From contig JBHLMN010000031.1 of the NCBI GenBank assembly GCA_048938105.1, positions 1 through 27,255 on the forward strand: a stretch of 27,255 nt of DNA, read 5' to 3'. This DNA is from Promethearchaeota archaeon. GTDB taxonomy: Archaea; Asgardarchaeota; Heimdallarchaeia; Hodarchaeales; Hodarchaeaceae. The position numbers and the translations under genes are program-made. Below are positions 2,498 through 18,574 of this stretch, one piece after another (position 1 is the stretch's first letter; each line of letters begins with the position of its first letter). The notes beneath the pieces were generated by a model. The model saw nothing but the letters and a program-made list of their open reading frames with translations, was not told where the DNA came from and searched no databases.

Positions 2498-2498
2498 C

Positions 2499-2873: not shown

Positions 2874-2874
2874 T

Positions 2875-2910
2875 ATATCTAGATCCCAAATAGGTAGCTA
2901 ATCTAGATAT
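2875..2910. promoter_or_regulatory. Perfect inverted repeat ATATCTAGAT-N16-ATCTAGATAT, candidate PadR operator
   Basis: 10-bp arms at 2875-2884 and 2901-2910, directly upstream of the PadR ATG. Confidence 0.55.
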
Positions 2911-2949
2911 GTAAAAGTTTCTTTCTACGAATAACAGAAATCATCTACG

Positions 2950-2970
2950 AACTCCGTCAAAGGCTGGATT
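2950..2970 (+). repeat. Dispersed GGCTGGATT-core repeat, left arm + core only
   Basis: AACTCCGTCAAAGGCTGGATT is identical over 21 nt to 14681-14701; the right arm is replaced by unrelated sequence. Confidence 0.9.
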
Positions 2971-2975
2971 GATAA

Positions 2976-3167
2976 GCTGGATCAAAAGTCACGACAAAAT
3001 CGCACTTTCGGGATGAATTCACGACGAGTGTCCAGCATCGTACCGTCATGAGCGGCCTCGTGGCACCTGGGTTTTTTGGCTTCTTCTACAGGAAACTCGG
3101 TAGTTCCAGCATGGGAAATGCCTTCTTGAAGGCACATAAGACCTACTTCGAGAAGCAAAACGAGTGA
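2976..3167 (+). pseudogene. 5'-truncated, GC-rich gene fragment (C-terminus of an unknown, possibly SRPBCC-like protein)
   Basis: Open frame AGSKVTTKSHFRDEFTTSVQHRTVMSGLVAPGFFGFFYRKLGSSSMGNAFLKAHKTYFEKQNE*, preceded by an in-frame TAA; about 48% GC by hand count (2981-3160); third codon positions mostly G/C. Confidence 0.6.
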
Positions 3168-3283
3168 ATCCACGGATGTTTGAAGAACGACGAGGATATC
3201 ATTCTCGAATGGTAAAGTAATTTAGCTAAATTCTGGAAATTTTTGTTATTCTCACTTTTAGATGTAATTGAATTAAGGAAGGG

Positions 3284-3291
3284 AAAAAAAA
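3284..3291 (-). terminator. Oligo-T tract, archaeal-type terminator candidate
   Basis: T8 immediately after the stop of 3292..4515 on the minus strand. Confidence 0.4.
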
Positions 3292-4515
3292 TCAACCGCC
3301 TCTATATGTCTGGTAATACATTCCTCCAATTATTAATCCTTCCTGCGTTACGAATACCACTTTATCTTCTAATTTAATTCTCAAAGCGGGTAAAGCACTG
3401 GATACATATGGTTGCATTGATGTCATAACAAATTCTGTTTGGATATTTTGCAAATTATAATTTCGATCTAAATTCTTTTTTACAATAGCAATTGCTTTTT
3501 TTTCGGAAATGTACGAAACTGGTCTTGAAAATACACAAAGTTCTTCAAATTGACCTGTATAAGCGTTTATAAGAACACTGAATTTCGTTTTTGGATAATC
3601 AAATTTAGATACTTCATATTTATTTGCAAATGGGACAATATAGTAATGGGGCAAACCTTCTGGAGACTTTAGAGGTGATTTTACAGATAATTCGGAAACT
3701 AGCATAGGACGCGAATCTTGGACGCCAGTGAAATATTTCAATAAAAATCTAGATTTATCTCTTAATCGTTCTTTAATATACTTTCGAGCCCTCTCAGCAG
3801 CTGCTTCTGGTTTTATGAAGGTTTCACCTACTCTTGTAATTTTCTCAACCTGGATTTGACCTTCCTCTTCTGGTGGTTCACCGATACCAACCCATTTATT
3901 ATACCACTCTTGACCACAAGTATTTGATGTCCCATGGAGGCCATTACAAGGTAATCCCCAATAGTAGGGGCCCTCCATCCATGCGGAACCTGCAATTTCA
4001 CGATAATCTACCGTCGGACCACCTAACCATTCCGAATAATACGGTACGTATAGTCCAATATATTCCAATGTTGGATTTGTCATTTGTCGAGGATCATCTG
4101 ATGTCTTATAATAAACTATAAGTTCCCAAAAATCATGCAAATGTGGACTGATGAGTGAAGCATATTTATAATTGGCCATCCAGCGCAATAACTTGAATAG
4201 AACTTCCTCTTTATTTGTGTCAGATACATCAACCCAATGATGTTGGGGAGGACACAGATCATTCAATGCTTTAGTTACTGCAAAAGGATCTGAGTACCAA
4301 CCAATTCCCCAAGGACCAGTTCCCCCTTCTTTATTGTTTGTCTGTATATAGTTCCAGATAGTAGTCTGATCAATAAAACAGGATGTTGCATTTGGAGGAT
4401 AACCATTCATTGCCATCTGACAGCAGGCAGGTCCACCCCAATCAGGTTCTTGCGTACCATATGAATCATCATGGGGCACTTGTTCTGTTAAATCCACTTC
4501 AAACATTTGATTCAT
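3292..4515 (-). CDS. Papain-fold C39-like domain protein with PepSY-like C-terminal region; catalytic residues appear substituted
   Basis: QEPDWGGPACCQM resembles the C39 Q-x-CGPAC-x-M motif; C-terminal YYIVPF...VLINAYTGQ; starts 1 nt after the VWA gene stop. Confidence 0.6.
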   Translation of the reverse strand: MNQMFEVDLTEQVPHDDSYGTQEPDWGGPACCQMAMNGYPPNATSCFIDQTTIWNYIQTNNKEGGTGPWGIGWYSDPFAVTKALNDLCPPQHHWVDVSDTNKEEVLFKLLRWMANYKYASLISPHLHDFWELIVYYKTSDDPRQMTNPTLEYIGLYVPYYSEWLGGPTVDYREIAGSAWMEGPYYWGLPCNGLHGTSNTCGQEWYNKWVGIGEPPEEEGQIQVEKITRVGETFIKPEAAAERARKYIKERLRDKSRFLLKYFTGVQDSRPMLVSELSVKSPLKSPEGLPHYYIVPFANKYEVSKFDYPKTKFSVLINAYTGQFEELCVFSRPVSYISEKKAIAIVKKNLDRNYNLQNIQTEFVMTSMQPYVSSALPALRIKLEDKVVFVTQEGLIIGGMYYQTYRGG

Positions 4516-4516
4516 C

Positions 4517-6922
4517 CTACCTTAAAGTCTGCTCCTTTTCAGTAAGGTTTAATTTCCAGATTTTTCCTTTATATCTTATTTTAAATCTTGCATCTGGAAG
4601 AATACATTCTGGGATATCAAAAATTTGAATATATGTCCCATCTGAATTGTCTTTTAATTCACTTACAGGTTTTGCCCACTGATATTTGATTGAAAAATAA
4701 CCTGCGTGACCTGGACCGATAAAGTGTCCAAATTCATCTTTGGGAATAAGTGTAAGTTCAATTCGAGCAATTTCATTTTTAATCCGTTTCTTCACGTGTT
4801 GAATGATGCTATTTCTGGGTGAGAACTTACCGTGGAGAAATTTTGTGATTCTCTGATTCCTTTGTAAGGAAATTCCATCCTTTGTTGCTTCATTTACCAT
4901 AAAAGTAAATGTAAATTTTCCATCTATCTTTGTATCTGCGAAGATTCCTTGATAAATCCCAGGGGAATATTTCGAATCTTTATCCTGTGAAATTTCCTTT
5001 AGCTGTACTTTTATGAGTGAATCTTTCTCTCTAGGAAAAGGTATTTTCTTATCCCGTATAATTCTCATTTTTCTGTGAAAGGGAACAAGAAGCTCATTCT
5101 CGATTTTTTTCGGATATTTTAGGAATTCTTCTTTACTTACTTTATTCTGATAAAACCATGTTCCTAGGCTTGTTTCTGGAACCCTGATAACAACCTGTAC
5201 ATTGTGTAAATTGGTGATAGGTTTCCCATTACGCTCAATATATAGCTGTAACAGAATTTTAGCTCCTGTTTCAAATGATAAAGCTCGCACATAAGGCCTA
5301 AATTGAGTGAAAGAACTACCGATGACACTGAAGTGATATTTTTCTGTCTCAGCTGACTTAAATTTGTTAGGTATAATTTTAATTTTCCAAGGATTCGTAT
5401 TTACTTTCTGATTTTGTCTTAAAAACGATTCATCGATCGTTACTAAAGTATACGTGCCACCATGTTTTGAAGTTACTCCAATGCCGTCTAATGGTACCAA
5501 TTGGCCGTCAGATGATGAAATCTCAATTATTAATCTTTGTTTTTGCATTGATACCCAGCTTAAGTAAAAGGTCACTAAATTCTCAGCTGTACTTATTCTA
5601 ACTTCTTCCTCATAAGTATCAGAAGCAGCTAATATTCCTAATGGATCAATAATACCCTCTATTCTAAGGCAATCAACAAGAATCTCTTTATAAACCTCAT
5701 GGAGTTCAGTTGCAGGATCCCATATCATTGGATCAAAACTCTCACCTGTGACGTCATAAAACAATCCTCCAGTTTCAGAGGCTAAAAATTCTAACAGAGG
5801 ATGATCTAAGTCTGAAGGACGGCCAAATCCTATTACGTAGACTCTTATACCACGTTCTTTCAAAATTTTAACAAGATCTTGTACCTCAGAAGAGCCTGGA
5901 TCAATAAAACCTGGACAATTATGATAACCATCAGATAACAACACAATTGCCTTATTTGAAGTAGGGTGGAGGATTCCTGAACATAATTCCCCTAAATTTT
6001 CTATAGCTGTTGAGATTCCTGCTAAAAGAGGTGTATTCCCCTCAGCAACAAGTTGAGGTAAAATGGTGTTTTGAGCATAATTGATTGTAAAATCTGTAAT
6101 ATCTAAAAGATTTAATAACAATTGACCAGTACATCCAGTACCAGATTGCCAAGGATGATTGGGAAACGTTGCCATTCCTAATTTTTGTCCAGTACCGTGA
6201 ATACCTAAGAGATCTAAAAATGGAATAATCGCATTTTTCGCGTGGTTTAACCTCTGTTTTTCAGGGGGGACCCCAGTATTACCCTCATGGCTCCAAGCCA
6301 TGCTTCCCGAGGTGTCAATGAGTAGACTTACTCCTGAAACTGCTTGGGTAGTACTCGTGAAGGGTTGTTCAGTAGAATACAAAATTAGCTCATCTAAATT
6401 ATTTTCAGCAAAGTCTGTTGTAACGTGTAATTCTTCTATACCCAACGGATCTGTGAACTGAAATAAACGCCAACTACCAGCAGAACCACGGTAACCTTCA
6501 ATCTGTTGATCTTGATCACGATTACGATAAGCTCTTACCGAGAGAAATGGTTGTGGATGGAGTGATGTGTAATCTGTAGAAGCTTTTATGCTTAAAGCAA
6601 AAATTCGCTTGTAAACCCAAGTAGAGGGATCATCTACCAACCAACCTGCGGCTTGACTATCAACAAAGTGTATTCTGATTTCTCCTCTTTCTGGAAATGG
6701 ATAAGTTCCATTACAATTAATATTTGAAAACGCAAACCATTTTCCTGTAGGGGGTGTATCAAAATTCCATACAACGGATCCTTGTCCAGAATCAATTGTA
6801 AAAACGATTTGCGTATCAGGATTACCATCTTCGTCCAAATCGACTAGGACAGAAATATATTCACCTTGACAGTGAACAAGATTTACTTCACCAAATTCAT
6901 CTATTACATCAGTTGTGGTCAT
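4517..6922 (-). CDS. Large VWA domain-containing protein
   Basis: MIDAS motif LLIDTSGSM, GNTPL, IVLLSDG, VYVIGFG, LASETGG; GGAGGT ribosome-binding site upstream. Confidence 0.9.
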   Translation of the reverse strand: MTTTDVIDEFGEVNLVHCQGEYISVLVDLDEDGNPDTQIVFTIDSGQGSVVWNFDTPPTGKWFAFSNINCNGTYPFPERGEIRIHFVDSQAAGWLVDDPSTWVYKRIFALSIKASTDYTSLHPQPFLSVRAYRNRDQDQQIEGYRGSAGSWRLFQFTDPLGIEELHVTTDFAENNLDELILYSTEQPFTSTTQAVSGVSLLIDTSGSMAWSHEGNTGVPPEKQRLNHAKNAIIPFLDLLGIHGTGQKLGMATFPNHPWQSGTGCTGQLLLNLLDITDFTINYAQNTILPQLVAEGNTPLLAGISTAIENLGELCSGILHPTSNKAIVLLSDGYHNCPGFIDPGSSEVQDLVKILKERGIRVYVIGFGRPSDLDHPLLEFLASETGGLFYDVTGESFDPMIWDPATELHEVYKEILVDCLRIEGIIDPLGILAASDTYEEEVRISTAENLVTFYLSWVSMQKQRLIIEISSSDGQLVPLDGIGVTSKHGGTYTLVTIDESFLRQNQKVNTNPWKIKIIPNKFKSAETEKYHFSVIGSSFTQFRPYVRALSFETGAKILLQLYIERNGKPITNLHNVQVVIRVPETSLGTWFYQNKVSKEEFLKYPKKIENELLVPFHRKMRIIRDKKIPFPREKDSLIKVQLKEISQDKDSKYSPGIYQGIFADTKIDGKFTFTFMVNEATKDGISLQRNQRITKFLHGKFSPRNSIIQHVKKRIKNEIARIELTLIPKDEFGHFIGPGHAGYFSIKYQWAKPVSELKDNSDGTYIQIFDIPECILPDARFKIRYKGKIWKLNLTEKEQTLR

Positions 6923-7367
6923 TAATTTCTACCTCCAATAACTTTAATTTACTACTGGATACTCCAAGAATTATCTGTAAGAGTAAAACTTTCTTTCAAT
7001 TTTCTAGTTTTTTCAAACCTCACGATATTGGTTCTGTAATACAATTACATTAAAAAAGGTAGCAGCAAAAAAATTACATTTTTCAGTGCTTCTTTTGCGA
7101 TGAAATTTTGCTAGTAAATCTAATCAAGCTTGTTTTCAATGCGGTTGAAAGAAGTTAATCTTTGATTGATTGATTTTGGGTCACATTCCTCGTTCATTAA
7201 AGATACAATGGATGTTTGAGTAATAGAATTGATGACCTATCATTTAAAAACGCCAAACCTTAATTTCTCATCATTCTAAGATCCCTAGTGAGTAAATTGT
7301 GTATATTTTTGAACGTATTCTTATGTAGGATAGTTCCTGGGAATTGTAAAAGAAATGTTGAAATCTG

Positions 7368-7402
7368 TATGGTGGTAATCCAGCCATGCAATGTTCGATC
7401 TA
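7368..7402 (-). repeat. Dispersed GGCTGGATT-core repeat, minus-strand copy
   Basis: Reverse complement TAGATCGAACATTGCATGGCTGGATTACCACCATA; shares TAGATCGAAC and ATGGCTGGATTA with 14004-14032, left arm 2 nt shorter. Confidence 0.85.
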
Positions 7403-7445
7403 TAATTTTCAAAATCTCTTCATTTGTGTCTTTTAATTCATGTTT

Positions 7446-7607
7446 TTAGACACCATTCATGTTCAAAAAAGATTCTATCCTCTCATTGAATTCTTCAACG
7501 TTTTCTAAGTTTGTTACATGTCTTGCGTTTGATATTATATCTACTTAACAGTTATAGATAAAAACAAAGGGTTTACACTCTCCTTTTAGACTATAATAAA
7601 TAATCAT
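7446..7607 (-). pseudogene. Alpha/beta hydrolase remnant with large internal deletion
   Basis: Translates MIIYYSLKGECKPFVFIYNC*VDIISNARHVTNLENVEEFNERIESFLNMNGV*: a typical N-terminus joined to a typical C-terminus, with an internal stop. Confidence 0.65.
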
Positions 7608-7832
7608 TCACCATTACTTAAAAAAACATCATTAAATCCCTTATCACTCAAAAATATAGCTTCTTTGGCCGAATATGATAATATCCCTTGAAAGATAGGA
7701 TCGTAATTCTATATTTAATTTAATAAGGAAATTGATCTAACTGACTTTGAAGCAATTCTAATTTTTTTGGGTGTCATTTGAAAGGATTGTTAAATACCTA
7801 GACAAAAAAATGCATAATTAGGAAGGATTTGA

Positions 7833-8102
7833 ATGCCTTGTGGTTTATGGTTAAATGCTTATACCCCTAAATGCTATCTAGTGAAAGATGAAGCATTAAT
7901 TGCTCATGGAGAACAATGTTTACGAGATTACGGGAAATTAACTATGAAAACCTGGAGTTTTTACGTTGATAGATATAATAGGAGTAAAGGATTGAGTAAA
8001 AACTCCCATATTGGAGATATGAGGATTCATGGGCTCCCTGAGAGTGTTACATCTCGTTTTGGGAACTTTGGAAACTTTAAGCGATTGTGTGGTGCTATTT
8101 AA
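7833..8102 (+). CDS. Small hypothetical protein, weak resemblance to homing-endonuclease-associated repeat (P...RFGxF)
   Basis: 89-aa ORF with upstream GGAAGGA; LPESVTSRFGNFGNFKRLCG. Confidence 0.4.
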   Translation: MPCGLWLNAYTPKCYLVKDEALIAHGEQCLRDYGKLTMKTWSFYVDRYNRSKGLSKNSHIGDMRIHGLPESVTSRFGNFGNFKRLCGAI

Positions 8103-8105
8103 GGA

Positions 8106-8411
8106 TTACTGTATCTTCCTCAACTTTCCTTTGCAATATGGACAACCGAATATTCCAGTCTGAGCTTCATAACAAGAATTACACACAAGACGAGAACAAT
8201 CAGAGCATTGATATGCTGGATCTGTTGCGGGATGATTCTGTTGATCAATTTGACAGAAAAAAGAGACTCGGTGATAACCAAAAAAGACTGTACCCTCAGA
8301 AATAGCAAAATTAACCTTATTAGAATTGGAACTTAACCAGTCCCTAATAGCTTGGGCTAGAATCAATCGAGTACTTTTCCTCAGTGTCGTCAATCCAGCC
8401 TTCTTCCTCAA
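8106..8411 (-). CDS. RING-like zinc-finger protein, probably a C-terminal fragment
   Basis: CQID...H...YQCSDCSRLVCNSC...CPYC; TTG start is doubtful and the first codons overlap a repeat core. Confidence 0.6.
   Translation of the reverse strand: MRKKAGLTTLRKSTRLILAQAIRDWLSSNSNKVNFAISEGTVFFGYHRVSFFCQIDQQNHPATDPAYQCSDCSRLVCNSCYEAQTGIFGCPYCKGKLRKIQ
8392..8402 (-). repeat. Isolated core AAGGCTGGATT of the dispersed repeat
   Basis: 11-nt exact match, but the arms do not match the consensus. Confidence 0.4.
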
Positions 8412-8582
8412 AAGTATTTAGGCAATTTTTCAACACGTAAATTAAGGTCAAAAACAAATATGAAAACAACTAGTTAAAAGTTTTAATCCAAAGGCATTAA
8501 TTGGGGCTAAAGTACAATTGAATATATATACCTTTAAAAAATCCATATTCACGGATAATCAACCAATCCTCCCTAATGAAGG

Positions 8583-8888
8583 ATGAAAGAAGTGTTAACA
8601 AAAAGGAAAATCATAGATTATCTGGAAGCTGAAATTCCTTTTCTCATGGAGGCATATCATGTTAATACAATTGGTTTATTTGGATCTTATGCTCGCGAGG
8701 AACAGAATGAAACAAGTGAATTAGATTTACTTTTTGAATTTACGAAACCAATCAGCTATTTTGCTCTTTTCAAGTTAGAGGATTATTTATCTGATAAACT
8801 AGGCGTTCGTGTCGAAATTGTTACTCCAGGTGGATTAAAAGAATTAATAAAACCAAAAATATTGAAGGATGTAGTTTATGTCAAGTAG
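8583..8888 (+). CDS. Minimal nucleotidyltransferase (MNT) antitoxin
   Basis: IGLFGSYAREEQNETSELDLL...LSDKLGVRVEIV; 101 aa; overlaps a HEPN remnant. Confidence 0.9.
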   Translation: MKEVLTKRKIIDYLEAEIPFLMEAYHVNTIGLFGSYAREEQNETSELDLLFEFTKPISYFALFKLEDYLSDKLGVRVEIVTPGGLKELIKPKILKDVVYVK

Positions 8889-9040
8889 GACTTCAAATTG
8901 TTTTTAGATGATATTCTAAAGGCTATAATAAAATAAATCGTTACATAAATGATCTAAGTTATGAACAATTTCAAAAGGACGTAAAAACTGTCGACGCTGT
9001 TATAAAAAACTTAGAAATAATAGGGGAGGCTGCAAAAAAA
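8878..9040 (+). pseudogene. HEPN/DUF86 toxin pseudogene (frameshifted, truncated)
   Basis: Across two frameshifts reads MSSR/DFKLFLDDILKAI/INRYINDLSYEQFQKDVKTVDAVIKNLEIIGEAAKK; similarity ends before the R-x4-H motif. Confidence 0.85.
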
Positions 9041-9156
9041 TCGTCGAATATAACCCAGAATGAAAAGCAGTTTTTGATAGTTTATAAGCTATTTATGAGA
9101 ATTCCAAGGTAATCCAGAAGCTAGGTGAACTAGGTTACTTCCATTCGAGATATGAT

Positions 9157-10809
9157 CTAAGTATTTTCAATAATTGGTAAAATCAAATGCGATGGATACT
9201 CGGAATCATGGAATATAGTTTGATTAGCTTTAATAAAATCACTATTTAATTCATTATCACCACCAGTATTGAGATTCCTACTGATCCGGGGAAAATTGCT
9301 ACTTGATATTGCTAATCCGATCCTGTGTCCAATGAGAAATTCATTACTTGTATTCCATAAATCTATTTCATAACAATACACTTCATCAGGGATCAATAAT
9401 TCAGGATTTTCTATTCCATTGCGGAATCTAGCTCTAACCACACCATCTGTTAAAATCCTGGCATTTCCATCAAGTCCTATATCCATAAATTTTGCTGTGA
9501 AATCTGTATCTTTTGCTGAACTTGAAGCATATAATACTAATTTGATCGCTCCTGTGATTTCAAGTGGTTCTGTTAGTGGTTCACTATAATAAGTTAGAAC
9601 ATCTTTCCGAAGCATTACTATTTGTTGATCCCTTGGTCCTCTCTTCATTGGTAGTACAATAGCTGGACTGCTGTTTGCACCTCCCCATGTCAAAACTGGA
9701 TCAGCGGGATCATAAATGAATTTATCAGGTAATTCATCATTAGGTTTTTCTACAGATAATAACCCTTTTACCCAAGAACCAGATACATCTCCATTGCTAT
9801 GTAAATAAAATTTGGTTTCTTTGACCCTTGATAAAGGCCATTCTTGTTCATCACGCCATTCGTTTCTTCCCATCACAAAAATTCTAACAGGAGGTAAGGT
9901 AATAACCAAATCATTTCCTTTCAAATGCTTTTCAAAAAACTCTCTCTCAATAGAACGTAAATCTACCTTTGAGTTTGGTCCAAAATCATATTCATTTGCA
10001 GCATCACCAGCAACACTATGATCCCAAGGCCCAATTATAAGATGTGTATTTCTTTTTTGGTAATCAGAGCCCTCCTTCATTGTTTGCATAAAGAAATCTA
10101 TTGGTCCAGTTCCACAATGATCGTACCATCCTGTTACCATAAGATTTGGTGTATTTAGCTTATGAATCTTCTTAGGGCTCATATCTTCTTTCAAACCAAA
10201 CAAATGATAATTCCTCAAAATATAATGATATCTTTCAATTGGTCCATGTAGTTCATCAAGAACAGTAGTTATTGGCAATTTATAGAGATGAGGCATCCAC
10301 TCTACAGTATCAACGGGTCGGAATTCATTACTACTTTGAGCCATAAACATCCATTGAGGTATCTGACTAAACATGAATGCACCTCCGAGACGAGACATGA
10401 AACCATAAGGTAATACTTCTGGGGACATTGCTCGATGTGCAGGATGAGCTAAAAATGCAGTTTCAATTTGAACTCTTGCCAAAGCAGATCGACCGAAAGT
10501 ACCAACGATTTTATTGCTCCAAGATTGATTTATAATCCAATCAATTGTATCGTATCCATCTTCAGGATGGTTTTGCCTTGTAACTGGTCCACCTTCCGAT
10601 TTATTACGCCCCCGAATGTTTTGTAAGACAGCTACATAACCATTTTTCACCCAATATCTCGCTCTGTCATCAACCATTTCATGACCATAAGTACACCTAG
10701 CCAAAAGAGAAGGAAATTTACCATCATCATTTGGGAAGTACACAAGAGTTTGTAAATGAATTCCATCCCTCATTTTGAGCATAACTTCTTCTATTTTCAA
10801 AATTATCAC
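9157..10809 (-). CDS. CocE/NonD family hydrolase
   Basis: MRDGIHL, RGRNKSEG, DGYDTIDWI, GTFGRSA nucleophile elbow, GWYD, GPWDH, C-terminal SSSNFPR. Confidence 0.95.
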   Translation of the reverse strand: MIILKIEEVMLKMRDGIHLQTLVYFPNDDGKFPSLLARCTYGHEMVDDRARYWVKNGYVAVLQNIRGRNKSEGGPVTRQNHPEDGYDTIDWIINQSWSNKIVGTFGRSALARVQIETAFLAHPAHRAMSPEVLPYGFMSRLGGAFMFSQIPQWMFMAQSSNEFRPVDTVEWMPHLYKLPITTVLDELHGPIERYHYILRNYHLFGLKEDMSPKKIHKLNTPNLMVTGWYDHCGTGPIDFFMQTMKEGSDYQKRNTHLIIGPWDHSVAGDAANEYDFGPNSKVDLRSIEREFFEKHLKGNDLVITLPPVRIFVMGRNEWRDEQEWPLSRVKETKFYLHSNGDVSGSWVKGLLSVEKPNDELPDKFIYDPADPVLTWGGANSSPAIVLPMKRGPRDQQIVMLRKDVLTYYSEPLTEPLEITGAIKLVLYASSSAKDTDFTAKFMDIGLDGNARILTDGVVRARFRNGIENPELLIPDEVYCYEIDLWNTSNEFLIGHRIGLAISSSNFPRISRNLNTGGDNELNSDFIKANQTIFHDSEYPSHLILPIIENT

Positions 10810-10880
10810 CTAATTAGATAAACAGGACTTGTCCATGCCATGTGACCATCTTCTTGGGCTGTTTGAAAAATATAGAAACT
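10806..10880 (-). pseudogene. C-terminal remnant of a DUF3604/CehA-McbA-like metallohydrolase
   Basis: SFYIFQTAQEDGHMAWTSPVYLIR* resembles the Q-x-DG-x2-AW-x-SP terminal motif; its stop overlaps the CocE start (GTGA). Confidence 0.6.
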
Positions 10881-11151
10881 CTTTATTGAAAAAGAGAAAA
10901 TAAATTAAAACATAACTACTCCAGCTGCAGTAACGCCAATCTTTCTTTCTTTAAAAGGTTATTTCAATGCAAAGACGTCTAACGAACTCCTTGTAACGAT
11001 TACGAATCTCCCTCCAACATTGCCAAGTTCCTCTTGAATCCCTTCAGCTCTATATCCACCTACATTTTCTCGAAATTTTCCATAATAACCACCCACTATT
11101 AAATGTGAAAGATTAAGAGACTGGGAAAACGGCCTTTTTAGATTTTCCACT

Positions 11152-11268
11152 ATGGTTCAGATTTTGTTAACAAGAAGTCGCAAAATAACTATGGATCTAA
11201 ACGGAGATGGTAGGTTAACAGTTCTTGACCTTGGGTATATTTTCTTAAGAAACGATACTGTTCAATGA
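11152..11268 (+). other. 38-aa ORF or fragment with a single dockerin/EF-hand-like Ca-binding loop
   Basis: MVQILLTRSRKITMDLNGDGRLTVLDLGYIFLRNDTVQ*; DxNxDG-x5-D motif; ends 22 nt before a repeat copy. Confidence 0.5.
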
Positions 11269-11290
11269 ACTGACGAAAAAATATGATAGC

Positions 11291-11320
11291 AATGTCGTAA
11301 AAGGCTGGATTAGCACCAAT
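11291..11320 (+). repeat. Dispersed GGCTGGATT-core repeat
   Basis: AATGTCGTAAAAGGCTGGATTAGCACCAAT. Confidence 0.9.
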
Positions 11321-11451
11321 AAAGTTTTCAATTCAATTTGCTTTTACTTCTAGTCGCTGATTCTAAAAGATTATTGTTGTAAGAGTGAAATATTGAATTC
11401 CAATTCTTTTAGATTTATAATAGGAAGAGTATTCCAATTGTAAGTGGAGTA

Positions 11452-12492
11452 GTGTTAACTGAATTGCATCTAGAAAGAATCACACTAGAAAAAATTGTAT
11501 TAGGTGTGATACTGTTCTCCCAAATCCTCATTCTGAGCGCTTATTTTCTATTTCCAAGTCCCCTAAAATATACAAGCAGTTCATTTAGTTTAGAGGTAGG
11601 AAATGAAATACAAATAATAATACTAGCCCCTAATGATCAAGAATTCGCAATAGGAGACGTTCTGGGCAATATTTTAATCTACAATGTTAATGGTACATTA
11701 TTATCAAGCTGGGAAGCACATAATTTGGATGTCAGTTCGTTGAGTTATTCTGCTGATGACACAATTCTTGTTTCAGGAGGATATGATGGTTACGTTAAGA
11801 TGTGGAATGTGTCCACAAGGACAAATATATCGGAAATCTATGAAACAGGGGCAATTTCCAGTGTACATATCTTACTTGACAACAATGCATTGGTCTATCA
11901 ATATCTAGAAGGGAGCTCGTTAAACGATTTTCTCGTATTATGGAACCTAACCTCTGGAACGAGAACGTGGACAAAAAATGTTGGAAGACTAGAATTCATT
12001 ACCTTATCATCAAACGAAGAACTGATTACAAGCAAGTTTGTCCATCGAATAAAAGGCTGGAACGAATTACACCTCAGTTATACGAAAAATGCTTCAACAG
12101 CCTATAATTTAACAAATTTCGATGGAGCATTATATGCAGGAACATTCTCTCCCAATGGAAGACTTTTTGCAGCAGGAGGATCATTAGGGGAAGTTTATGT
12201 TTGGGATCTGGAACAAGTACAAATAATTCGCAGATTTAAAATGTTAGGCGTAATTAATGACGTTATATTCACATCCGAGGGAAGTAAAATATGTACAGTT
12301 TCAGGTGGCTATGAAAACGCCATCTGTCTCTGGGATCTAGAATCAGGAATAATGGAAAAGAAGTTAGTAATCAAATCAGAGCAGATCCCTAGTTATTTGG
12401 ATGATGTAGCTCAGATCCAAATCACTACTAATTTAACAGTAATATCGCGGAGATATTCAGGAAAGATCGAGTATTGGAGTCTGAAATCTTGA
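11452..12492 (+). CDS. Membrane-anchored WD40 repeat protein
   Basis: N-terminal hydrophobic helix; LVSGGYDGYVKMWNV, FSPNGRLFAAGGSLGEVYVWDL, ICLWDL. Confidence 0.9.
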   Translation: MLTELHLERITLEKIVLGVILFSQILILSAYFLFPSPLKYTSSSFSLEVGNEIQIIILAPNDQEFAIGDVLGNILIYNVNGTLLSSWEAHNLDVSSLSYSADDTILVSGGYDGYVKMWNVSTRTNISEIYETGAISSVHILLDNNALVYQYLEGSSLNDFLVLWNLTSGTRTWTKNVGRLEFITLSSNEELITSKFVHRIKGWNELHLSYTKNASTAYNLTNFDGALYAGTFSPNGRLFAAGGSLGEVYVWDLEQVQIIRRFKMLGVINDVIFTSEGSKICTVSGGYENAICLWDLESGIMEKKLVIKSEQIPSYLDDVAQIQITTNLTVISRRYSGKIEYWSLKS

Positions 12493-13136
12493 ACGAGGAA
12501 ATGAAAAAAATGTCAAGTGGGAGCCAGTTTTATCTCAAAGGGACAGGAATAGGTATCTTGATGTTTTGGCTTGTTATAATCCTATCTTTCTTGATAGATA
12601 TAAGATCATTAGAATTGATATTTAGACAGGCCCCTGCTCTTTTCTTACTTATCTTAATTTTGCCCTTTTTCCTAATCCTGATGTATTTCCAAACTCCGAA
12701 TGGTGTTCCTAGTATTCTATTACTTTCTTGGGAAGCAGTATGGATGCTAGGATTAATAGTATCTCATACAAAAATTATAGAGAAGAAAACTGTCTGGAAG
12801 AATACAATTTTATTTCTATTAATTTTAATAGGAGCTGCGCCATTCTTAGTTGTGCAAATTGTGGGAGTAGAATTCATTCCTTTAGTAAGCACACTGATTA
12901 ATGAAGCAGCTGTACACTATTCATTTGTATATCCACCAGCTAAATTTATACAAATCTATTGGGGAGTCCCCCTTTGGATAATAACTTGGTACTATGCATG
13001 GACGCTCAAAATTCCCCAGAATCTTGTCAGTAAAAAGTCGCTTGAAGCTACCCAACTTCAATGGTTAACTTGGTTGATAACACTCAGTGGAATCCTTATT
13101 GTGAACCCGGTACTTACCATTATTTACTTCCCTTAA
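12474..13136 (+). CDS. Hypothetical multi-pass membrane protein
   Basis: About 6 hydrophobic segments; true start probably the ATG at 12501 or 12510. Confidence 0.75.
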   Translation: MESEILNEEMKKMSSGSQFYLKGTGIGILMFWLVIILSFLIDIRSLELIFRQAPALFLLILILPFFLILMYFQTPNGVPSILLLSWEAVWMLGLIVSHTKIIEKKTVWKNTILFLLILIGAAPFLVVQIVGVEFIPLVSTLINEAAVHYSFVYPPAKFIQIYWGVPLWIITWYYAWTLKIPQNLVSKKSLEATQLQWLTWLITLSGILIVNPVLTIIYFP

Positions 13137-13239
13137 ACGTACATGAATTTAAAGACAAATAGAATCAAACTAGTTTTTCCTTTTTGAGTAATAATCAATT
13201 TATACCGAATCATTTTAGATTTTGCAATGAATTACAACG

Positions 13240-13269
13240 AACGTCGTCTATGGCTGGATTAACACCAAT
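13240..13269 (+). repeat. Dispersed GGCTGGATT-core repeat
   Basis: AACGTCGTCTATGGCTGGATTAACACCAAT; 13238-13261 is identical (24 nt) to 14009-14032. Confidence 0.9.
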
Positions 13270-13298
13270 ATTTTTTTAAGAAAACCAATCGTGTATAT

Positions 13299-13943
13299 GT
13301 GAATCCCATGTTAAAAGTTGTTTCCTTTGATGTGGTTGGCACCCTCCTAGATTCTAGCTTTGAAGATCATGTTTGGAATAGATTGATTCCCCAATTGTAT
13401 GCTAGGAAACAAGGTATTAACTTTGAAAAAGCAAAAGAATTTATTCAAATAGAATATGATAATATCGGAAATAAGGACATAAGATGGTATCTACCTTCAT
13501 ATTGGTTCAAGCATTTCGACTTAGATGAAGATCCAATAGAAGTTTTTAGATCTCAAATCAGTAAAGTGAAATTTTACCCAGAAACTCAGTTAGTGGTGAA
13601 AAAACTCAGTCAGAAATATGAATTAATCATTGTTAGCGGAACGACACGAGAAATCATTGAAATTATGATCGAGAAGGTTAGACATTATTTCAAACATATA
13701 TTTTCTCCCATATCGGATAGAAATGAAATCAAGAAGAAACCACAAATGTATGAAATGATCTGTAAGATTTTAGAGATTGAACCTAATAAAATGACACATG
13801 TTGGTGATGACTGGTATTCTGATTTCATTTCTCCAAGAAAAATGGGAATTAAGAGCTTCCACCTGGACAGAACTGGGAAAAAGAGCGGAAAATTTGTGAT
13901 CAGAGATTTAAATGAGCTAGAAAATCGCTTGAAAATCTTTTAA
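13299..13943 (+). CDS. HAD family hydrolase
   Basis: SFDVVGTL (motif I), IIVSG (II), KKKP (III), HVGDDWYSD (IV). Confidence 0.9.
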   Translation: MNPMLKVVSFDVVGTLLDSSFEDHVWNRLIPQLYARKQGINFEKAKEFIQIEYDNIGNKDIRWYLPSYWFKHFDLDEDPIEVFRSQISKVKFYPETQLVVKKLSQKYELIIVSGTTREIIEIMIEKVRHYFKHIFSPISDRNEIKKKPQMYEMICKILEIEPNKMTHVGDDWYSDFISPRKMGIKSFHLDRTGKKSGKFVIRDLNELENRLKIF

Positions 13944-14010
13944 CGGATAATAGATGAAAAATCCGATTTAGAGTTAAGTGGAAAGAGGTGTCAATACCTG
14001 TTTTAGATCG

Positions 14011-14040
14011 AACGTCGTCTATGGCTGGATTAGCATCAAG
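14011..14040 (+). repeat. Dispersed GGCTGGATT-core repeat
   Basis: AACGTCGTCTATGGCTGGATTAGCATCAAG. Confidence 0.9.
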
Positions 14041-14404
14041 AGTTCAAATTTATTAGTTATTCTTCATTTTCAAAAATACAAGGGTATATACAGTAAAATA
14101 TTCCCCGTACTTCCAACAATTCATTAAAATATTGTTTTTCTTCAAGGAAACATCCTTTTTATAAAAGTAGAGAGGAAACCGACTTAATTTCAGCTATAAC
14201 TTTATAAAGAGCTCAATTTGCTGGTTAATATGGTTTTCAGTTATATAGAATTTGATATTATAGCCTAGTTTTACAATTGTGGAATTTTAACCTTTATTAT
14301 TGATTTTTCTTCATTTTAAATGTTTGAAATTTATTATTGAGAGCAAAAGCAGAGATTTCTGGTTCTTTAGCGTGAAAACCAAACATACAATCAAAGTGAA
14401 TATA

Positions 14405-14563
14405 ATGAGTTTTGGAAATTCATACAATCGTGGACCACGAGAAATGCACAAAGTAGTCTGTGCTGATTGTGGAGTAGATACTGAAGTTCCTTTCAAACCC
14501 GATGGAATTAGACCAGTCTACTGCCAGGAATGTTATAGAAAACGCAGACCAAGAAGGTACTAA
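14405..14563 (+). CDS. CxxC-x17-CxxC domain zinc-ribbon protein (52 aa)
   Basis: REMHKVVCADCGVDTEVPFKPDGIRPVYCQECY; start moved from TTG 14300 to ATG 14405 to match the usual family size. Confidence 0.9.
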   Translation: MSFGNSYNRGPREMHKVVCADCGVDTEVPFKPDGIRPVYCQECYRKRRPRRY

Positions 14564-14605
14564 GCCACCCAAAGATTATCTAAGGATATTCTTTAATTTT
14601 CCTCC

Positions 14606-14614
14606 TTTTTTTTT
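14606..14614 (+). terminator. Oligo-T terminator candidate
   Basis: T9 tract about 40 nt after the stop at 14563. Confidence 0.4.
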
Positions 14615-14680
14615 GTTTCAAGATGATTTTAGGCTTATACTGTTCATCAAACAAACCTCTGGAATTTCGGGATAACATCC

Positions 14681-14710
14681 AACTCCGTCAAAGGCTGGAT
14701 TAACACCATT
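14681..14710 (+). repeat. Dispersed GGCTGGATT-core repeat
   Basis: AACTCCGTCAAAGGCTGGATTAACACCATT. Confidence 0.9.
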
Positions 14711-14942
14711 TTCTCTCCTAATTAGTAATTTGCTGGTCGTTTATATCGTGATTCTATCGTTTTCATCATTCTTCCTCAGTAATCTATTCAAGGTCAATCT
14801 GCTGTTTTAAGTTCTTCTCTAATAGCTAAACTTCCCTGAAAATATTTTAGTGCAAGATCGTAAGAGTAAAATGAAGAGTGAAATCTGCATTCTAATATAG
14901 TACACTTCTTAAGGAAGGAAATTCCTAGTTCAATTAGAAGGA

Positions 14943-15791
14943 ATGCTAGTAAATCAAACATTAATGTTATTAGTATCGTTCTTGTTTGTGGGGTCATATG
15001 TCATTATCCAAAACAGAAACCATGAGTGCTGTATCTGTAGACAAACCATAACCACAAATGACGAGATAGTCATCTGTCCCAATTGTCACACAATATATCA
15101 TTGGACACACTTGTCGATATGGTTGAAAATACGAAAAAAATGTCCGATATGCAAAAATATCATTAGAAATGGGTACAACTCTTTCTATTACGATCTGAAA
15201 GAGCGATATTCCGCGAGTAATAATGAAATCTCACAAACCAGTGTGATTCCACGGAGGAGAAACCAACGAGTTCCCACTCGAAAGCATTCCTTACGAGGAG
15301 ATTCCATCGTATTAGAGTGCCCCCATTGCCAAAATATCTTAGAACCATCTAACTTAGGGGAGGTAAGTCAATGTCAAATGTGTGGGTCACAGATATCCTG
15401 GATAAATGATCTTGAATCAAGGATCAAACATCTGAATAACCTACCTCTCTTCAGACCGAAGAAACATAAAAGAGGAAATGGAGGACGAAACGATAGTAAA
15501 CTTAGTTATCGAAATATTGAACAACAGAAAGAGAAAAAGCGTGAATTATTGCGAAAAGAGTTACAGGAACAGACACAATTAAAATCACAAGAACAAATGC
15601 TGGTACTCAACCAAGACTACTTTAGGAGAAAAATACCCCACCCAAGGTATGAACAATCTCTTCCGTTAAGGATAATCAACTTAGAAGAGATCAAGAAGAA
15701 TCCAAAGAAAATCAATTATTTGGGACTAGGAAGTTTTATATTGGTACTAACGGTTATCACAGTCTTTATTTTCGTCGCTATATTAGGATAA
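14943..15791 (+). CDS. RING-finger protein with second zinc ribbon, charged helical segment and C-terminal membrane anchor
   Basis: CCIC...CPNC...HWTH...W...CPIC; CPHC...CQMC; hydrophobic C-terminal tail. Confidence 0.8.
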   Translation: MLVNQTLMLLVSFLFVGSYVIIQNRNHECCICRQTITTNDEIVICPNCHTIYHWTHLSIWLKIRKKCPICKNIIRNGYNSFYYDLKERYSASNNEISQTSVIPRRRNQRVPTRKHSLRGDSIVLECPHCQNILEPSNLGEVSQCQMCGSQISWINDLESRIKHLNNLPLFRPKKHKRGNGGRNDSKLSYRNIEQQKEKKRELLRKELQEQTQLKSQEQMLVLNQDYFRRKIPHPRYEQSLPLRIINLEEIKKNPKKINYLGLGSFILVLTVITVFIFVAILG

Positions 15792-15827
15792 TTATCACTT
15801 TGATTTAATATTTAATCTCTTTTTTAC

Positions 15828-15858
15828 ATATCTGCTATCATTTAGCACTAGTAGATAT
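15828..15858. terminator. Inverted repeat between convergent genes
   Basis: ATATCTGCTA-N11-TAGTAGATAT (9/10 Watson-Crick pairs). Confidence 0.3.
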
Positions 15859-15879
15859 TTAATAATCTGATAAATCAAT

Positions 15880-16272
15880 TTACTCAAGTTTAAAATTATC
15901 AGAAGTTAACTTAATCATTTCTAAACGTGAAGGAGGTTCTCCCTCAAAAATCTCATTTGCATAGTAATCATAACTGAAGATAGCTAGATCAAACATGATC
16001 CTGTTCAGCGCTTGTCCTTTCTCAGTCAATTTATATCTCGCTCTCATCGGAGATTTGCTAACTATTCTCTTATCTATTATTCCATATTTTTCAAGCTCTC
16101 TTAACCTTTGAGACAAAACTTTACTACTTAAACCAAGATTGGCTTCTAAAATTTCAGTAAATCTTTCTTTTCCAAACCAAATATCCCTAATTACCTCAAT
16201 ACTCCATTTTCTGAAGAATTTGAGAGCGAATTTTGTTGGACATTTTTTCATTTCGACCATAAGTGGAATCAC
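15880..16272 (-). CDS. HxlR family winged-helix regulator
   Basis: CPTKFALKFFRKWSIEVIRD...RFTEI...LSSKVLSQRLRELE...YKLTEKG. Confidence 0.92.
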   Translation of the reverse strand: MIPLMVEMKKCPTKFALKFFRKWSIEVIRDIWFGKERFTEILEANLGLSSKVLSQRLRELEKYGIIDKRIVSKSPMRARYKLTEKGQALNRIMFDLAIFSYDYYANEIFEGEPPSRLEMIKLTSDNFKLE

Positions 16273-16349
16273 TTCTTCTTTTGCTTAAAACCTTGATATT
16301 ATCCCTTTCGTTTTTTCAAAGTTAAAGAATTTTCGTACCCAAAACGATT

Positions 16350-16369
16350 TGATTACTTTTTGGTAATCA
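16350..16369. promoter_or_regulatory. Palindrome TGATTAC-N6-GTAATCA, candidate HxlR operator
   Basis: Perfect 7-bp arms in the divergent hxlR/dinB-like intergenic region. Confidence 0.5.
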
Positions 16370-16485
16370 TCTAACCTAATGGTAGCAAAAATGATTTAAT
16401 GAGTTAATTTTATTGAATTTATTGATCTCTTGACTATCATGATAATGAATTCCGTTTTAAGTAGTTAAGAAAAGCTGGTATAGTC

Positions 16486-16947
16486 ATGGATTATCTAATA
16501 ATTTTGGAAAAGCAATATTCATACACTAAAAACCTTTTAATGGCACGAAAAGCCCAATTTCAAGAATCCTTTGAAAAACCTCTGTTTGAAAGAGAACAAA
16601 CGGCCGCTGAAGTATACATTCACGGACTCACTCCCCTTTACAGATCGTGTATGAAGATTCTTAACCCTGAAATAGATGAATCAACACTCAAACTTGAATT
16701 TAACTGTGAATTATCTTTGCCAGAGCAATATATTGATTTGTATAATCAAGTTCTGAAAATTCTCAAAGAAATAGAGGAAACCATGACATCCGAGGATTTA
16801 AAGGCGCATATTATGTATCCATTTGATCCTGATACTACAATTTCAAGATTAGAATGGATTGGGCTTAATATTATGCATGCTGTAACACATATAGGACAAG
16901 CATTACGATTACAATCACTTTATCTACATCATAAATTAAATAAGTAG
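16486..16947 (+). CDS. DinB/YfiT superfamily protein
   Basis: YIH...IMHAVTHIGQ histidine triad pattern; 153 aa, helical. Confidence 0.75.
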   Translation: MDYLIILEKQYSYTKNLLMARKAQFQESFEKPLFEREQTAAEVYIHGLTPLYRSCMKILNPEIDESTLKLEFNCELSLPEQYIDLYNQVLKILKEIEETMTSEDLKAHIMYPFDPDTTISRLEWIGLNIMHAVTHIGQALRLQSLYLHHKLNK

Positions 16948-17050
16948 GTAAAACATAACGGGTGGACCTATAATGATAAAAGATTCACAACATGGAATTT
17001 TCAAGCCAAAGTATATAGATCTTGTTCTTTTTGGTGAAAATGTGAAATAA

Positions 17051-17080
17051 TACTTCGCAAAAGGATGGTTTAGGTTGGCA
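17051..17080 (+). repeat. Degenerate copy of the dispersed repeat
   Basis: 17055-17072 TCGCAAAAGGATGGTTTA matches 18549-18566 TCGCAAAAGGCTGGATTA at 16/18; starts 103 nt after the DinB-like stop. Confidence 0.7.
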
Positions 17081-17306
17081 AAATATACACTAGAGTATAT
17101 ACTAAGACATATATTAACACATGGGAGAGGATAGCTTATAGATAATCTCGTTAGTTTCATTAAAGTTTTTCAACGGATATAAATTCCACCATTGAAAAGG
17201 TTCGGAACATTTGTGTGAAAATTATTAAAAATCCAGCAATAATTATAACACTAGAGAGAAATAAATGGACAATAAAAGTCATTAATCTTATCAATAATCT
17301 AAGAAT

Positions 17307-18512
17307 ATGCTAAATTCATTTAAATCACCTGTTTTCAACAAGCTAGATACATTTTTGTCCCAATTAGTAGAAGATAAGAAGGCACCAGGAATAATTTTTC
17401 TTTTATATGAAAAAGGAAAAACGAGATTTCTGCAAAAATATGGATGGCAAGATATAGAGAATGAAATACTATTAGAATTCGATGCTATTTTCAGAATTTA
17501 TTCAATGACTAAACCAATTATAACCATTGCATTGATGATGTTATTTGAAGAAAGGAAATTTAAATTAAATGATCCTATTTCTAAATTTTTACCTGAATTT
17601 AAAGATATGAAAGTTTTTGTGAAAGAAGAAAATGGAAAAATTATTACAGAGGAATTAGAACGAGAGATAACTATTCTTGATCTATTTACCCATACTTCAG
17701 GTTTAGGTTCTAAAGAGACAGATGATCCTATTGATAAACAGTATAAGGAAAAATTATCCTTTGATAAGACAAAGGTGATGTCATTGGAGCAAGTAATCAC
17801 GGTTATTTCTTCATTCCCGCTTCGATTCCAACCAGGTAGATATTTTAAATACAGCTATGGATTAGATGTACTGGGGAGATTAATTGAAGTTCTCTCTGAA
17901 AAACCTTTAGATGAATTTTTGAAGGAAAGGGTATTTCATCCTTTGGAGATGGAAGACACTGCCTTTTATGTTCCTAGAGAGAAATTAGATAGATTCATTA
18001 AAATCTATACCTATAACGAAGATAATACTCTCGAAGTTGTCAATACTCCCTCTGAAATTGAACGATATGATATCAGCCATAAATTCTTCTCAGGGGGAGG
18101 TGGTCTTGTCTCTACAATAAAAGATTTCTTTAATTTTGCGTCAATCTTTCTTAATAAAGGAATATTTAAAGGAAATCGACTATTATCTCCAGAGACAATC
18201 GATCTTATAACAAAAAACCATCTCAAGAATAACCAAACAATTCCAGATCTAGTACTGGACAGAGTACCTGATGACAACTATTTTCTGAATTTGACTGGAT
18301 ATGGGCAAGGCCTCGGAATTAGAGTATTGATTGAAGAGGGTATTAGACCAACAGCAATTGGGGAACATGGTTGGGGAGGTGCTGCGGAAACATTTTACTG
18401 GGTTGACCCTTTGAATAAAGTTCTTGGTATATTTATGACACAATTGATACCAGATCTTACAAACGAGATTTGGAGGGTAATGCAATTAGCATACAGCGGA
18501 TTAGGTCTATAA
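17307..18512 (+). CDS. Serine hydrolase, beta-lactamase class C-like family
   Basis: FRIYSMTKP (SxxK), LFTHTSGL, FKYSY, SGGGGL, GWGGAA. Confidence 0.95.
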   Translation: MLNSFKSPVFNKLDTFLSQLVEDKKAPGIIFLLYEKGKTRFLQKYGWQDIENEILLEFDAIFRIYSMTKPIITIALMMLFEERKFKLNDPISKFLPEFKDMKVFVKEENGKIITEELEREITILDLFTHTSGLGSKETDDPIDKQYKEKLSFDKTKVMSLEQVITVISSFPLRFQPGRYFKYSYGLDVLGRLIEVLSEKPLDEFLKERVFHPLEMEDTAFYVPREKLDRFIKIYTYNEDNTLEVVNTPSEIERYDISHKFFSGGGGLVSTIKDFFNFASIFLNKGIFKGNRLLSPETIDLITKNHLKNNQTIPDLVLDRVPDDNYFLNLTGYGQGLGIRVLIEEGIRPTAIGEHGWGGAAETFYWVDPLNKVLGIFMTQLIPDLTNEIWRVMQLAYSGLGL

Positions 18513-18544
18513 GAATATAATGAATTTTGAAGAAAGTAAATATC

Positions 18545-18574
18545 TTTGTCGCAAAAGGCTGGATTAACATCAAT
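18545..18574 (+). repeat. Dispersed GGCTGGATT-core repeat
   Basis: TTTGTCGCAAAAGGCTGGATTAACATCAAT. Confidence 0.9.

Follow-up and report, generated by a model that had tools for sequence, protein, structure and literature searches.

Integron cassettes are mostly promoterless and co-oriented and are expressed from a common promoter, Pc. Their attC sites are imperfect palindromes of 57-141 nt with RYYYAAC/GTTRRRY boxes, which fold as single strands, and the integrase IntI, distinguished by a specific extra domain, is normally encoded beside the array. Integrative mobile elements exploiting Xer (IMEX), for example the CTX phage and the gonococcal genetic island, hijack the housekeeping Xer recombinases via dif-like sites with a degenerate arm. 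In Archaea, integrons and clusters of attC sites lacking integron integrases (CALINs) have been reported, and those archaeal attC sites that have been published are G+C-rich palindromes some 60-100 nt long (Ghaly et al. 2022, PMC9668308). The pdif modules of Acinetobacter plasmids are moved by the XerC and XerD proteins of the host (PMC6449649, PMC13141974, PMC11705084). Xer/dif recombination in Archaea resolves chromosome dimers (Cortez et al. 2010, PMC2958812; Serre et al. 2013, PMC3646895), and archaeal dif sites have an 11-6-11 architecture and are recombined by XerA in vitro without a partner (PMC2958812). Here we describe an array of small, unrelated gene modules separated by a short repeated site on a 27,255-base contig of a Promethearchaeota archaeon from the Hodarchaeales (JBHLMN010000031.1, GenBank assembly GCA_048938105.1); this whole stretch of DNA is called the window. 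We consider it probable that the array belongs to an integron-like cassette system which operates in the manner of dif modules, with a recombinase, probably XerA, supplied in trans.

The window corresponds to the entire contig C43 of the source assembly (G000; 5.85 Mb, 35% G+C, 65 contigs, 99% completeness). The source genome belongs to the genus Hodarchaeum, the name used by GTDB (supplement of PMC9668308), and was compared with 20 other Hodarchaeum genomes and 61 other Heimdallarchaeia genomes. A preliminary description of this DNA had pointed to eight copies of the 9-mer GGCTGGATT, and all of them lie exactly where it had placed them, on the plus strand at 2962, 11303, 13252, 14023, 14693 and 18557 and on the minus strand at 7377-7385 and 8392-8400. 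Dinucleotide-preserving shuffles of the window contain 0.18 copies on average, and none of 100 shuffles reached eight. Six direct copies with spacings of 1949, 771, 670, 2370 and 1494 bp had been described as well, and were found again with a repeat finder and a position weight matrix (PWM). The repeat finder recovers co-oriented copies at 11291, 13240, 14011, 14681 and 18545 plus a copy at 2950. The degenerate copy noticed near 17055 reaches ~21 bits with the PWM, the match being at 17049, and shows a variant centre, GGATGG, and a different right arm.

Aligned over all genomic copies, the site measures about 28 bp and consists of an 11-bp arm, (A)TGTCGYMAAA, a 6-bp centre, GGCTGG or in a minority CCAGCC, and a less conserved second arm (Table 1). 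The 30-bp consensus proposed before reflects a real shared site, of which only ~26-28 nt are conserved and the flanks are not. In about eight copies of G000 the arm is followed by CCAGCC, the reverse complement of GGCTGG. The second arm occurs in several classes. The usual form in G000 is ATTAACACCAA or ATTAGCACC; TTTAGATTACAAAAGTATATAC, referred to as class B, is the commonest form in sister species and contains a stretch resembling a transcription factor B recognition element (BRE) and a TATA box; ATTGATAAG also occurs, and TTTGACGACAT is an exact inverted copy of the first arm. In the seven plus-strand sites of the window and in the CCAGCC site at 8384 the arm is on one and the same side; the sole inverted site is the decayed copy at 7377. 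Of the two copies listed for the minus strand, the one at 7377 is such an inverted site, in a decayed state; the one at 8392 is a real site, but by its arm it is co-oriented with the others. It had also been stated that seven copies lie behind a co-oriented stop codon, and here the count has to be lowered, as only five of the seven plus-strand sites follow a co-oriented gene.

Two further features of the site are recorded here as observations. The right arm of class B, TTTAGATTACAAAAGTATATAC(C), for example at 17069-17095 of the window, shows conservation along ~23 nt. It resembles an archaeal BRE with a TATA box and is duplicated in some cases; the genes downstream of it are not consistently co-oriented. 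In one reading frame of the site a stop codon (TAA, TAG or TGA) stands at the same position in ~45 of 51 copies, preceded by CTG GAT, so that the frame would end in ...LRKRLD (e.g. window 13252-13262). The TTRR start of the second arm explains this pattern in part, not fully.

Clustering of the motif in variable regions had been proposed as a test, and both a PWM scan of the genome and the comparison with congeners bear this out. G000 holds ~50 copies at a PWM score of >=20 bits, and ~45 of these lie within ~175 kb of islands (Table 1); the number of singleton copies outside the islands, six, is in line with chance. Successive copies are separated by gaps of 0.45-11.4 kb (median 2.7 kb). Although island DNA is 80% coding, 43 of the 44 island copies are intergenic (binomial P ~3e-29). 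Genome-wide, the site has the same orientation as the upstream gene in 25 cases and the opposite one in 19, and relative to the downstream gene the corresponding numbers are 20 and 24. This mixed orientation to the neighbouring genes argues against a promoter or terminator. The arm by itself is not enriched across G000 (751 matches versus 960 for a reversed control); enrichment is seen only for arm and centre together. The combination of arm and centre, CGYMAAAGGCTGG, is present in 15 of the 20 other Hodarchaeum genomes with 2-14 exact copies each, often in co-oriented runs on one contig, while the reversed control pattern yields 0-1 copies per genome. The 61 other Heimdallarchaeia genomes contain six arm-plus-centre matches in total, which is about chance level.

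The modules between the sites recur, one by one, in other species. When the window was searched against the 20 congeners, the unit encoding a HAD hydrolase was found with 87-91% identity in at least four other species on unrelated contigs, and the zinc-ribbon unit with 81-86% identity in at least six. The unit with the MNT toxin-antitoxin gene has a counterpart of 90% identity in G020 and another of 84% within G000 itself, at C63:21011-21545. The pair of HxlR and DinB genes (79-82% identity) recurs alone in G014, where it stands directly behind a site, and in G018; the S15 peptidase recurs alone in G009 (93%). In the closest relative, G010, homology of 91% identity extends over window positions 109-2970 and ends at site 1. 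At this position G010 carries a decayed site, followed by 5.3 kb of unrelated DNA. The genes of a second array, at C39:245-265 kb, are scattered over many contigs of the relatives; three of them lie together on G003:C109, in a different order.

The ends of these shared units fall at the centre of the site. Four independent comparisons place the synteny breaks at the core, for which the preliminary description had proposed to look, at the edge of either GGCTGG or CCAGCC. The HAD homologues in G003, G018 and G011 start at window positions 13250-13258, the centre of site 3 being 13252-13257, and their upstream arms differ. In an alignment of seven genomes, the end of the zinc-ribbon cassette is common to the window, G006 and G018 through CCAACTCCRTCAAAGGCTGG; with the next base the sequences diverge into class A and class B right arms and have different neighbours. 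A site lies directly upstream of this cassette in G005, G006 and G018, and in G006 and G018 there are sites at both of its ends. C63:21011 and C63:27150 have 85 nt in common up to CCAGCC and differ after it. Conversely, the CCAGCC site of the window, C63:21011 and G020 share the DNA after CCAGCC and differ before it. As judged from these alignments, arm and centre appear to travel with the upstream unit and everything after the centre with the downstream unit, which is what exchange at a 6-bp crossover region predicts. Within G000, copies share only short extensions of their flanks, up to 70 nt (that of site 4, ~45 nt, is common to site C5:4498), and there are no duplicated cassettes in which crossovers could be mapped.

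The cargo is highly diverse. Altogether 146 island ORFs (open reading frames) match 171 Pfam families, none of which occurs in more than three ORFs; among them are ABC transporters, GNAT acetyltransferases, TIR domains, AbiEii-like AAA proteins, ResIII, HerA, MNT, methyltransferases, radical SAM enzymes and peptidases. An all-against-all BLASTP comparison of the island ORFs returned only pairs and one trio. Neither the Pfam matches nor this comparison revealed a recurrent gene in the islands that might serve as machinery, nor a recurrent endonuclease or integrase, and no recombinase or transposase family is among the Pfam matches of the 146 ORFs.

A recombinase encoded elsewhere had been postulated, and in accordance with this the array contigs carry no recombinase gene. 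G000 has three tyrosine recombinase (PF00589) genes, none of them on an array contig: a XerA orthologue, a full-length Xer-like paralogue on C56 and a fragment on C45 (Table 1). Its serine recombinase genes or fragments are likewise on contigs other than the array contigs, and no IS110-type gene was found in the genome. A XerA-like gene is present in 19 of the 20 congeners and is the only tyrosine recombinase found in nearly all of them, whereas the C56-type gene has a relative of 70% identity in one congener and relatives of 42% in three. What links XerA to the site is the arm. In each of the 13 Hodarchaeum genomes examined, a single arm copy precedes the xerA start codon by 10-35 nt, in one orientation or the other, and 11 of these copies are exact; the background expectation per 60 bp is 0.0006 for an exact arm and 0.014 for an arm with one mismatch. 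These 13 genomes are related, but the orientation of the arm and its surroundings differ between clades. The simplest reading of this arrangement is that XerA may bind the arm and regulate its own gene, the copy upstream of xerA being a candidate autoregulatory half-site.

The anatomy of the site, its clustering and intergenic position, the way cassettes have moved between species, breakpoints that fall at the centre and the tie of the arm to xerA lead us to infer strand exchange by a tyrosine recombinase, the identity of this enzyme and a circular intermediate. The motif would be a double-stranded core site of the dif type, with an 11-bp recombinase-binding arm, a 6-bp crossover region and a degenerate second arm. 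A tyrosine recombinase acting in trans, most likely the single conserved XerA of the host, would exchange strands at the borders of the 6-bp centre. Two co-oriented sites would release the intervening DNA as a circle with one hybrid site, and any site sharing its centre could take the circle up again. Each cassette would then begin with a right arm and finish with a left arm and the centre. By such steps arrays would grow, shrink and be reshuffled within and between Hodarchaeum species, and sites with other centres would form separate compatibility groups. The preliminary description had arrived at a site-specific recombination cassette system with a short non-attC site and a recombinase, possibly XerA-like, encoded elsewhere; the clustering, the breakpoints at the core, the absence of attC features and the link of the arm to xerA speak for it.

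Several points weigh against such a XerA-driven system. An exact copy of arm plus centre is absent from five congeners, among them G010, the closest relative. In other species, some of the cassette homologues have no site at their flanks, or the homology stops at the gene border, as is expected if sites decay. The second arm is weakly symmetric: it matches the inverted first arm at 6 of 11 positions in the ATTAACACCAA class and at 4 of 11 in the TTTAGATTACA class, so that a XerA homodimer might bind such sites poorly. No palindromic-arm site could be assigned as the chromosomal dif of the genus. The arm upstream of xerA could belong to another regulator. As most of the genomes are incomplete metagenome-assembled genomes (MAGs), a dedicated recombinase could be unassembled. 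Finally, no recombination product was seen, there being neither circles nor deletion alleles in the assembled contigs of public runs; the joints at sites in these contigs have sides of 21-27 nt, represent cross-matches between motif copies and are uninformative on excision. In a second sample from the same study, summed contig depth, a weak measure, is ~15x for the conserved flank and 3-5x for the array, and this contrast fits strain-specific islands.

The arm also occurs in other configurations. Palindromic 11-6-11 sites built from the same arm with other centres are found in ~12 places in G000. Five congeners, including genomes without GGCTGG arrays, have 2-7 such sites each (allowing up to three mismatches), compared with 1-2 for the control. 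The centres of these sites differ between species; TTGACA and GTCTTG/CAAGAC recur. One perfect palindromic 11-6-11 site of G000, with the centre TCATCA (C14:250385-250410), forms the right edge of a ~2 kb insertion relative to G009, which has a single site with the centre GTAAGG at the empty counterpart of this locus. A related arm, ATGTCGTATAA, with a CGTTGG/CCAACG centre is located in G000 at C56:188070, C56:194049 and C53:230099, near the accessory Xer-like gene on C56. The latter sites may be a second site family with its own recombinase.

It has to be asked whether XerA is the enzyme at all. The same cassette system might be served by a dedicated or element-borne tyrosine recombinase, either the C56 paralogue or one that escaped assembly. 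In favour of this, G000 does have the second full-length Xer-like gene at C56:201270-202139 plus the fragment on C45, arms with a CGTTGG centre lie near the C56 gene, and MAGs are incomplete. Yet relatives of the C56 type exist in only four congeners, whereas arrays exist in 15 of 20, several of which show only the XerA-like gene, and the arm stands at the xerA promoter in all 13 genomes. We regard a dedicated enzyme as rather unlikely. The arm at the xerA promoter could also be taken to mean that the motif is an operator or promoter element, for instance for a protein that also controls xerA, and that the shuffling comes about by other means; the intergenic position of the copies and the BRE/TATA-like AAAAGTATATAC stretch of class B would suit such a regulatory role. 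It is nevertheless improbable, as orientation and distance to genes are not fixed, the motif keeps to variable islands, breakpoints from independent comparisons coincide to the base next to the 6-bp centre, and the 13 nt identical between copies are too few for homologous recombination. Very improbable, in our view, is that the copies go back to the 3' end of a single target gene, as remnants left by repeated insertion of integrative or homing-endonuclease elements behind it. The shared stop codon position in ~45 of 51 copies and the largely co-oriented arrays would fit, but G000 has no intact gene with the motif at its end, nor does any gene stand at the head of an array. In addition, only ~26 nt are conserved, the arm is also found in palindromes with other centres, and the islands contain no recurrent endonuclease or integrase. 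The motif was rejected as coding sequence because the open frames upstream of it have only 2-52 codons and no intact gene ends in this way. One candidate source, the end of a leuD-like gene (C42:110501-111082, PWM 20 bits), was discarded as a chance match, since the ends of its orthologues do not match and no sites follow behind it. Independently of this, insertions of 0.7-1.9 kb lie between the leuD-like gene and its conserved downstream neighbour in G005:C297, G012:C99 and G006:C135. They are without a copy of the motif, and this seems to be another variable spot that uses a different mechanism.

Cassette arrays with diverse cargo and a toxin-antitoxin unit call to mind a classical integron or CALIN, in which an integron integrase recombines attC sites as folded single strands, the more so as Asgard MAGs are reported to contain integrons and CALINs, among them Hodarchaeum B3_Heim with three attC sites and one IntI (PMC9668308). 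The motif array of B3_Heim, however, lies on a contig other than those listed there with attC or IntI. The conserved stretch is only 26-28 nt long, without RYYYAAC/GTTRRRY boxes and without a partner repeat, and when six sites were folded as single-stranded DNA, three of them for both strands, the result was no better than for shuffles (z -0.7 to +1.7). With an integron integrase model the highest score is 173 bits, below the cut-off of 265, and none of the array contigs carries a PF00589 gene. The absence of attC features that had been remarked upon earlier is real; lacking boxes, single-strand folding and an integron integrase, the array is not an integron, and we judge this explanation extremely improbable. 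Least credible of all, with an almost negligible chance, are termini of an insertion sequence (IS) or a miniature inverted-repeat transposable element (MITE). The sequence is short and repeated, and in a few places the arm does form inverted pairs; however, inverted ends paired at element-like distances are lacking, the DNA on either side of each copy is unique cargo, and no transposase family was found in the islands. The check for known IS or MITE termini, which the preliminary description had named as a possible refutation, thus gave a negative answer.

Compared with the described systems, the XerA-driven cassette arrays proposed here most resemble pdif modules. In both, short sites with an 11-bp arm, a 6-bp centre and a second arm, which in most Hodarchaeum sites is weak, bound small accessory modules which include toxin-antitoxin pairs, the modules are without a recombinase and depend, here presumably, on the Xer of the host in trans, and the same module is met in different contexts. 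The Hodarchaeum arrays differ in being archaeal, in having one XerA instead of a XerC/XerD pair, in comprising ~50 sites per genome and in that the centres differ between site families. Most of their sites have one consensus arm and direct orientation, whereas pdif sites are inverted. Since the array contigs reach 274 kb and carry housekeeping genes, a chromosomal location is suggested, unlike that of the plasmid-borne pdif modules. With integrons and CALINs the arrays share small unrelated cassettes with a site at every junction, very diverse cargo, location in a variable part of the genome, and a crossover inside the site, so that a cassette carries part of the site at each end. Unlike those systems, they have no integron integrase, attI or attC; their site, a short one, lacks palindromic symmetry over its full length and does not fold when single-stranded, and their genes are found in both orientations with promoter-like boxes of their own. 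They recall archaeal Xer/dif recombination in the 11-6-11 layout, with a weak second arm in the main classes, and in the presence of a XerA orthologue; XerA needs no FtsK-like partner in vitro. But each chromosome has a single conserved dif, which possesses two good arms and serves segregation, while here dozens of one-armed sites bound mobile cargo. IMEX are single elements beside one dif, in contrast to arrays of many small cassettes spread over islands.

A bolder form of the XerA reading, which we put forward tentatively and lean slightly against, would be that a chromosome-dimer resolvase has been turned into a genome-wide engine of cassette exchange. Dozens of one-armed sites would be grouped by their centres (GGCTGG, CCAGCC, CGTTGG and others), and single genes would be excised, captured and traded between species; this would be an integron-like mechanism of the pan-genome with an independent origin in the archaeal lineage nearest to eukaryotes, and XerA would control its own gene via the half-site.

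Table 1. Sites, modules and related features of the window, with islands and candidate recombinase loci of the source genome (window coordinates unless a contig is given)
Feature	Position	Strand	Description
Site 1	2951..2978	+	Arm 2951-2961, centre GGCTGG 2962-2967, right arm of ATTGATAAG type 2968-2978; PWM 30.7 bits; first of array
Module	2979..7368	-	63-aa ORF, 407-aa protein without Pfam match, 801-aa VWA-domain protein; no homologue in G010
Decayed inverted site	7369..7396	-	Centre GGCTGG 7380-7385, right arm ATTACCACC, poor left arm; PWM <12 bits
CCAGCC site	8384..8411	+	Consensus arm GTGTCGTCAAT 8384-8394, centre CCAGCC 8395-8400
Module	8401..11291	+	MNT-type nucleotidyltransferase 8583-8888 (antitoxin of HEPN/MNT pairs); S15 X-Pro dipeptidyl-peptidase 9157-10809, minus strand (Pfam)
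Site 2	11292..11319	+	Arm 11292-11302, centre 11303-11308, right arm ATTAGCACCAA; PWM 42.8 bits, highest in genome
Cassette	11320..13240	+	WD40 beta-propeller protein 11452-12492; 220-aa protein without Pfam match 12474-13136
Site 3	13241..13268	+	Arm 13241-13251, centre 13252-13257, right arm ATTAACACCAA; PWM 40.8 bits
Single-gene cassette	13269..14011	+	HAD-family hydrolase 13299-13943 (Pfam)
Site 4	14012..14039	+	Arm 14012-14022, centre 14023-14028, right arm ATTAGCATCAA; PWM 36.9 bits
Single-gene cassette	14040..14681	+	87-aa treble-clef zinc-ribbon protein 14300-14563 with its own TATA-like box (Pfam)
Site 5	14682..14709	+	Arm 14682-14692, centre 14693-14698, right arm ATTAACACCAT; PWM 39.1 bits
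Module	14710..17051	+	Prokaryotic RING-finger protein 14943-15791; HxlR regulator 15880-16272, minus strand; DinB-like protein 16486-16947 (Pfam)
Site 6, class B	17052..17095	+	Arm 17052-17062, centre GGATGG 17063-17068, right arm TTTAGGTTGGC followed by BRE/TATA-like AAAATATAC stretch; PWM 21.4 bits
Single-gene cassette	17096..18545	+	Beta-lactamase-family serine hydrolase 17307-18512 (Pfam)
Site 7	18546..18573	+	Arm 18546-18556, centre 18557-18562, right arm ATTAACATCAA; PWM 38.3 bits
Islands	Last 56 kb of C39; first 75 kb of C63; contigs C5, C13, C43		PWM scan of G000
XerA orthologue	C14:173949-174839		283 bits against NF040815 (recomb_XerA_Arch), cut-off 220
Xer-like paralogue, full-length	C56:201270-202139		119 bits to the XerA model
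Tyrosine recombinase fragment	C45		
Arm upstream of xerA in G000	C14:173905-173950		Candidate autoregulatory half-site

Two of the modules in the window carry eukaryote-like domains, namely the RING-finger protein at 14943-15791 and the WD40 propeller at 11452-12492. Scans of the window found no tRNA genes and no Rfam families. The last 77 nt of the window (27179-27255) are identical, in reverse complement, to an end of contig C13, which carries the sites C13:693 and C13:9121. Because of this overlap C43 probably continues into C13. The genes from 18872 onward, which had been taken for a flanking operon to the right of the array, may then be one large module themselves. At the other end, window positions 1-77 form a 77-nt repeat with a perfect 10-bp hairpin (GCTTTTATTG ... 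CAATAAAAGC). This repeat is also found at or near the ends of C46, C38, C4, C64 and C50 and inside C59 and C14 (twice in each), and some of its copies are near serine recombinase fragments (C59:3-332, C14:393846-393992). Possibly it is the terminus of an IS607-like or other assembly-breaking element.

In the literature that was searched, which does not span all journals, we found no published archaeal dif-module system and no Asgard cassette system other than integrons. If our reading is true, the Hodarchaeum arrays would, as far as we could find, be the first archaeal counterpart of the bacterial dif modules, and integron-like arrays could be built without an integron integrase or folded attC sites. 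A 28-bp site together with a housekeeping recombinase would then account for part of the accessory genome, large and variable, of this lineage, whose islands carry defence genes (TIR, AbiEii-like, ResIII, HerA), toxin-antitoxin pairs, transporters and enzymes. Hodarchaeales are the archaea that have been placed closest to eukaryotes, and the way in which they gain and lose genes would bear on how the eukaryotic gene set was assembled.

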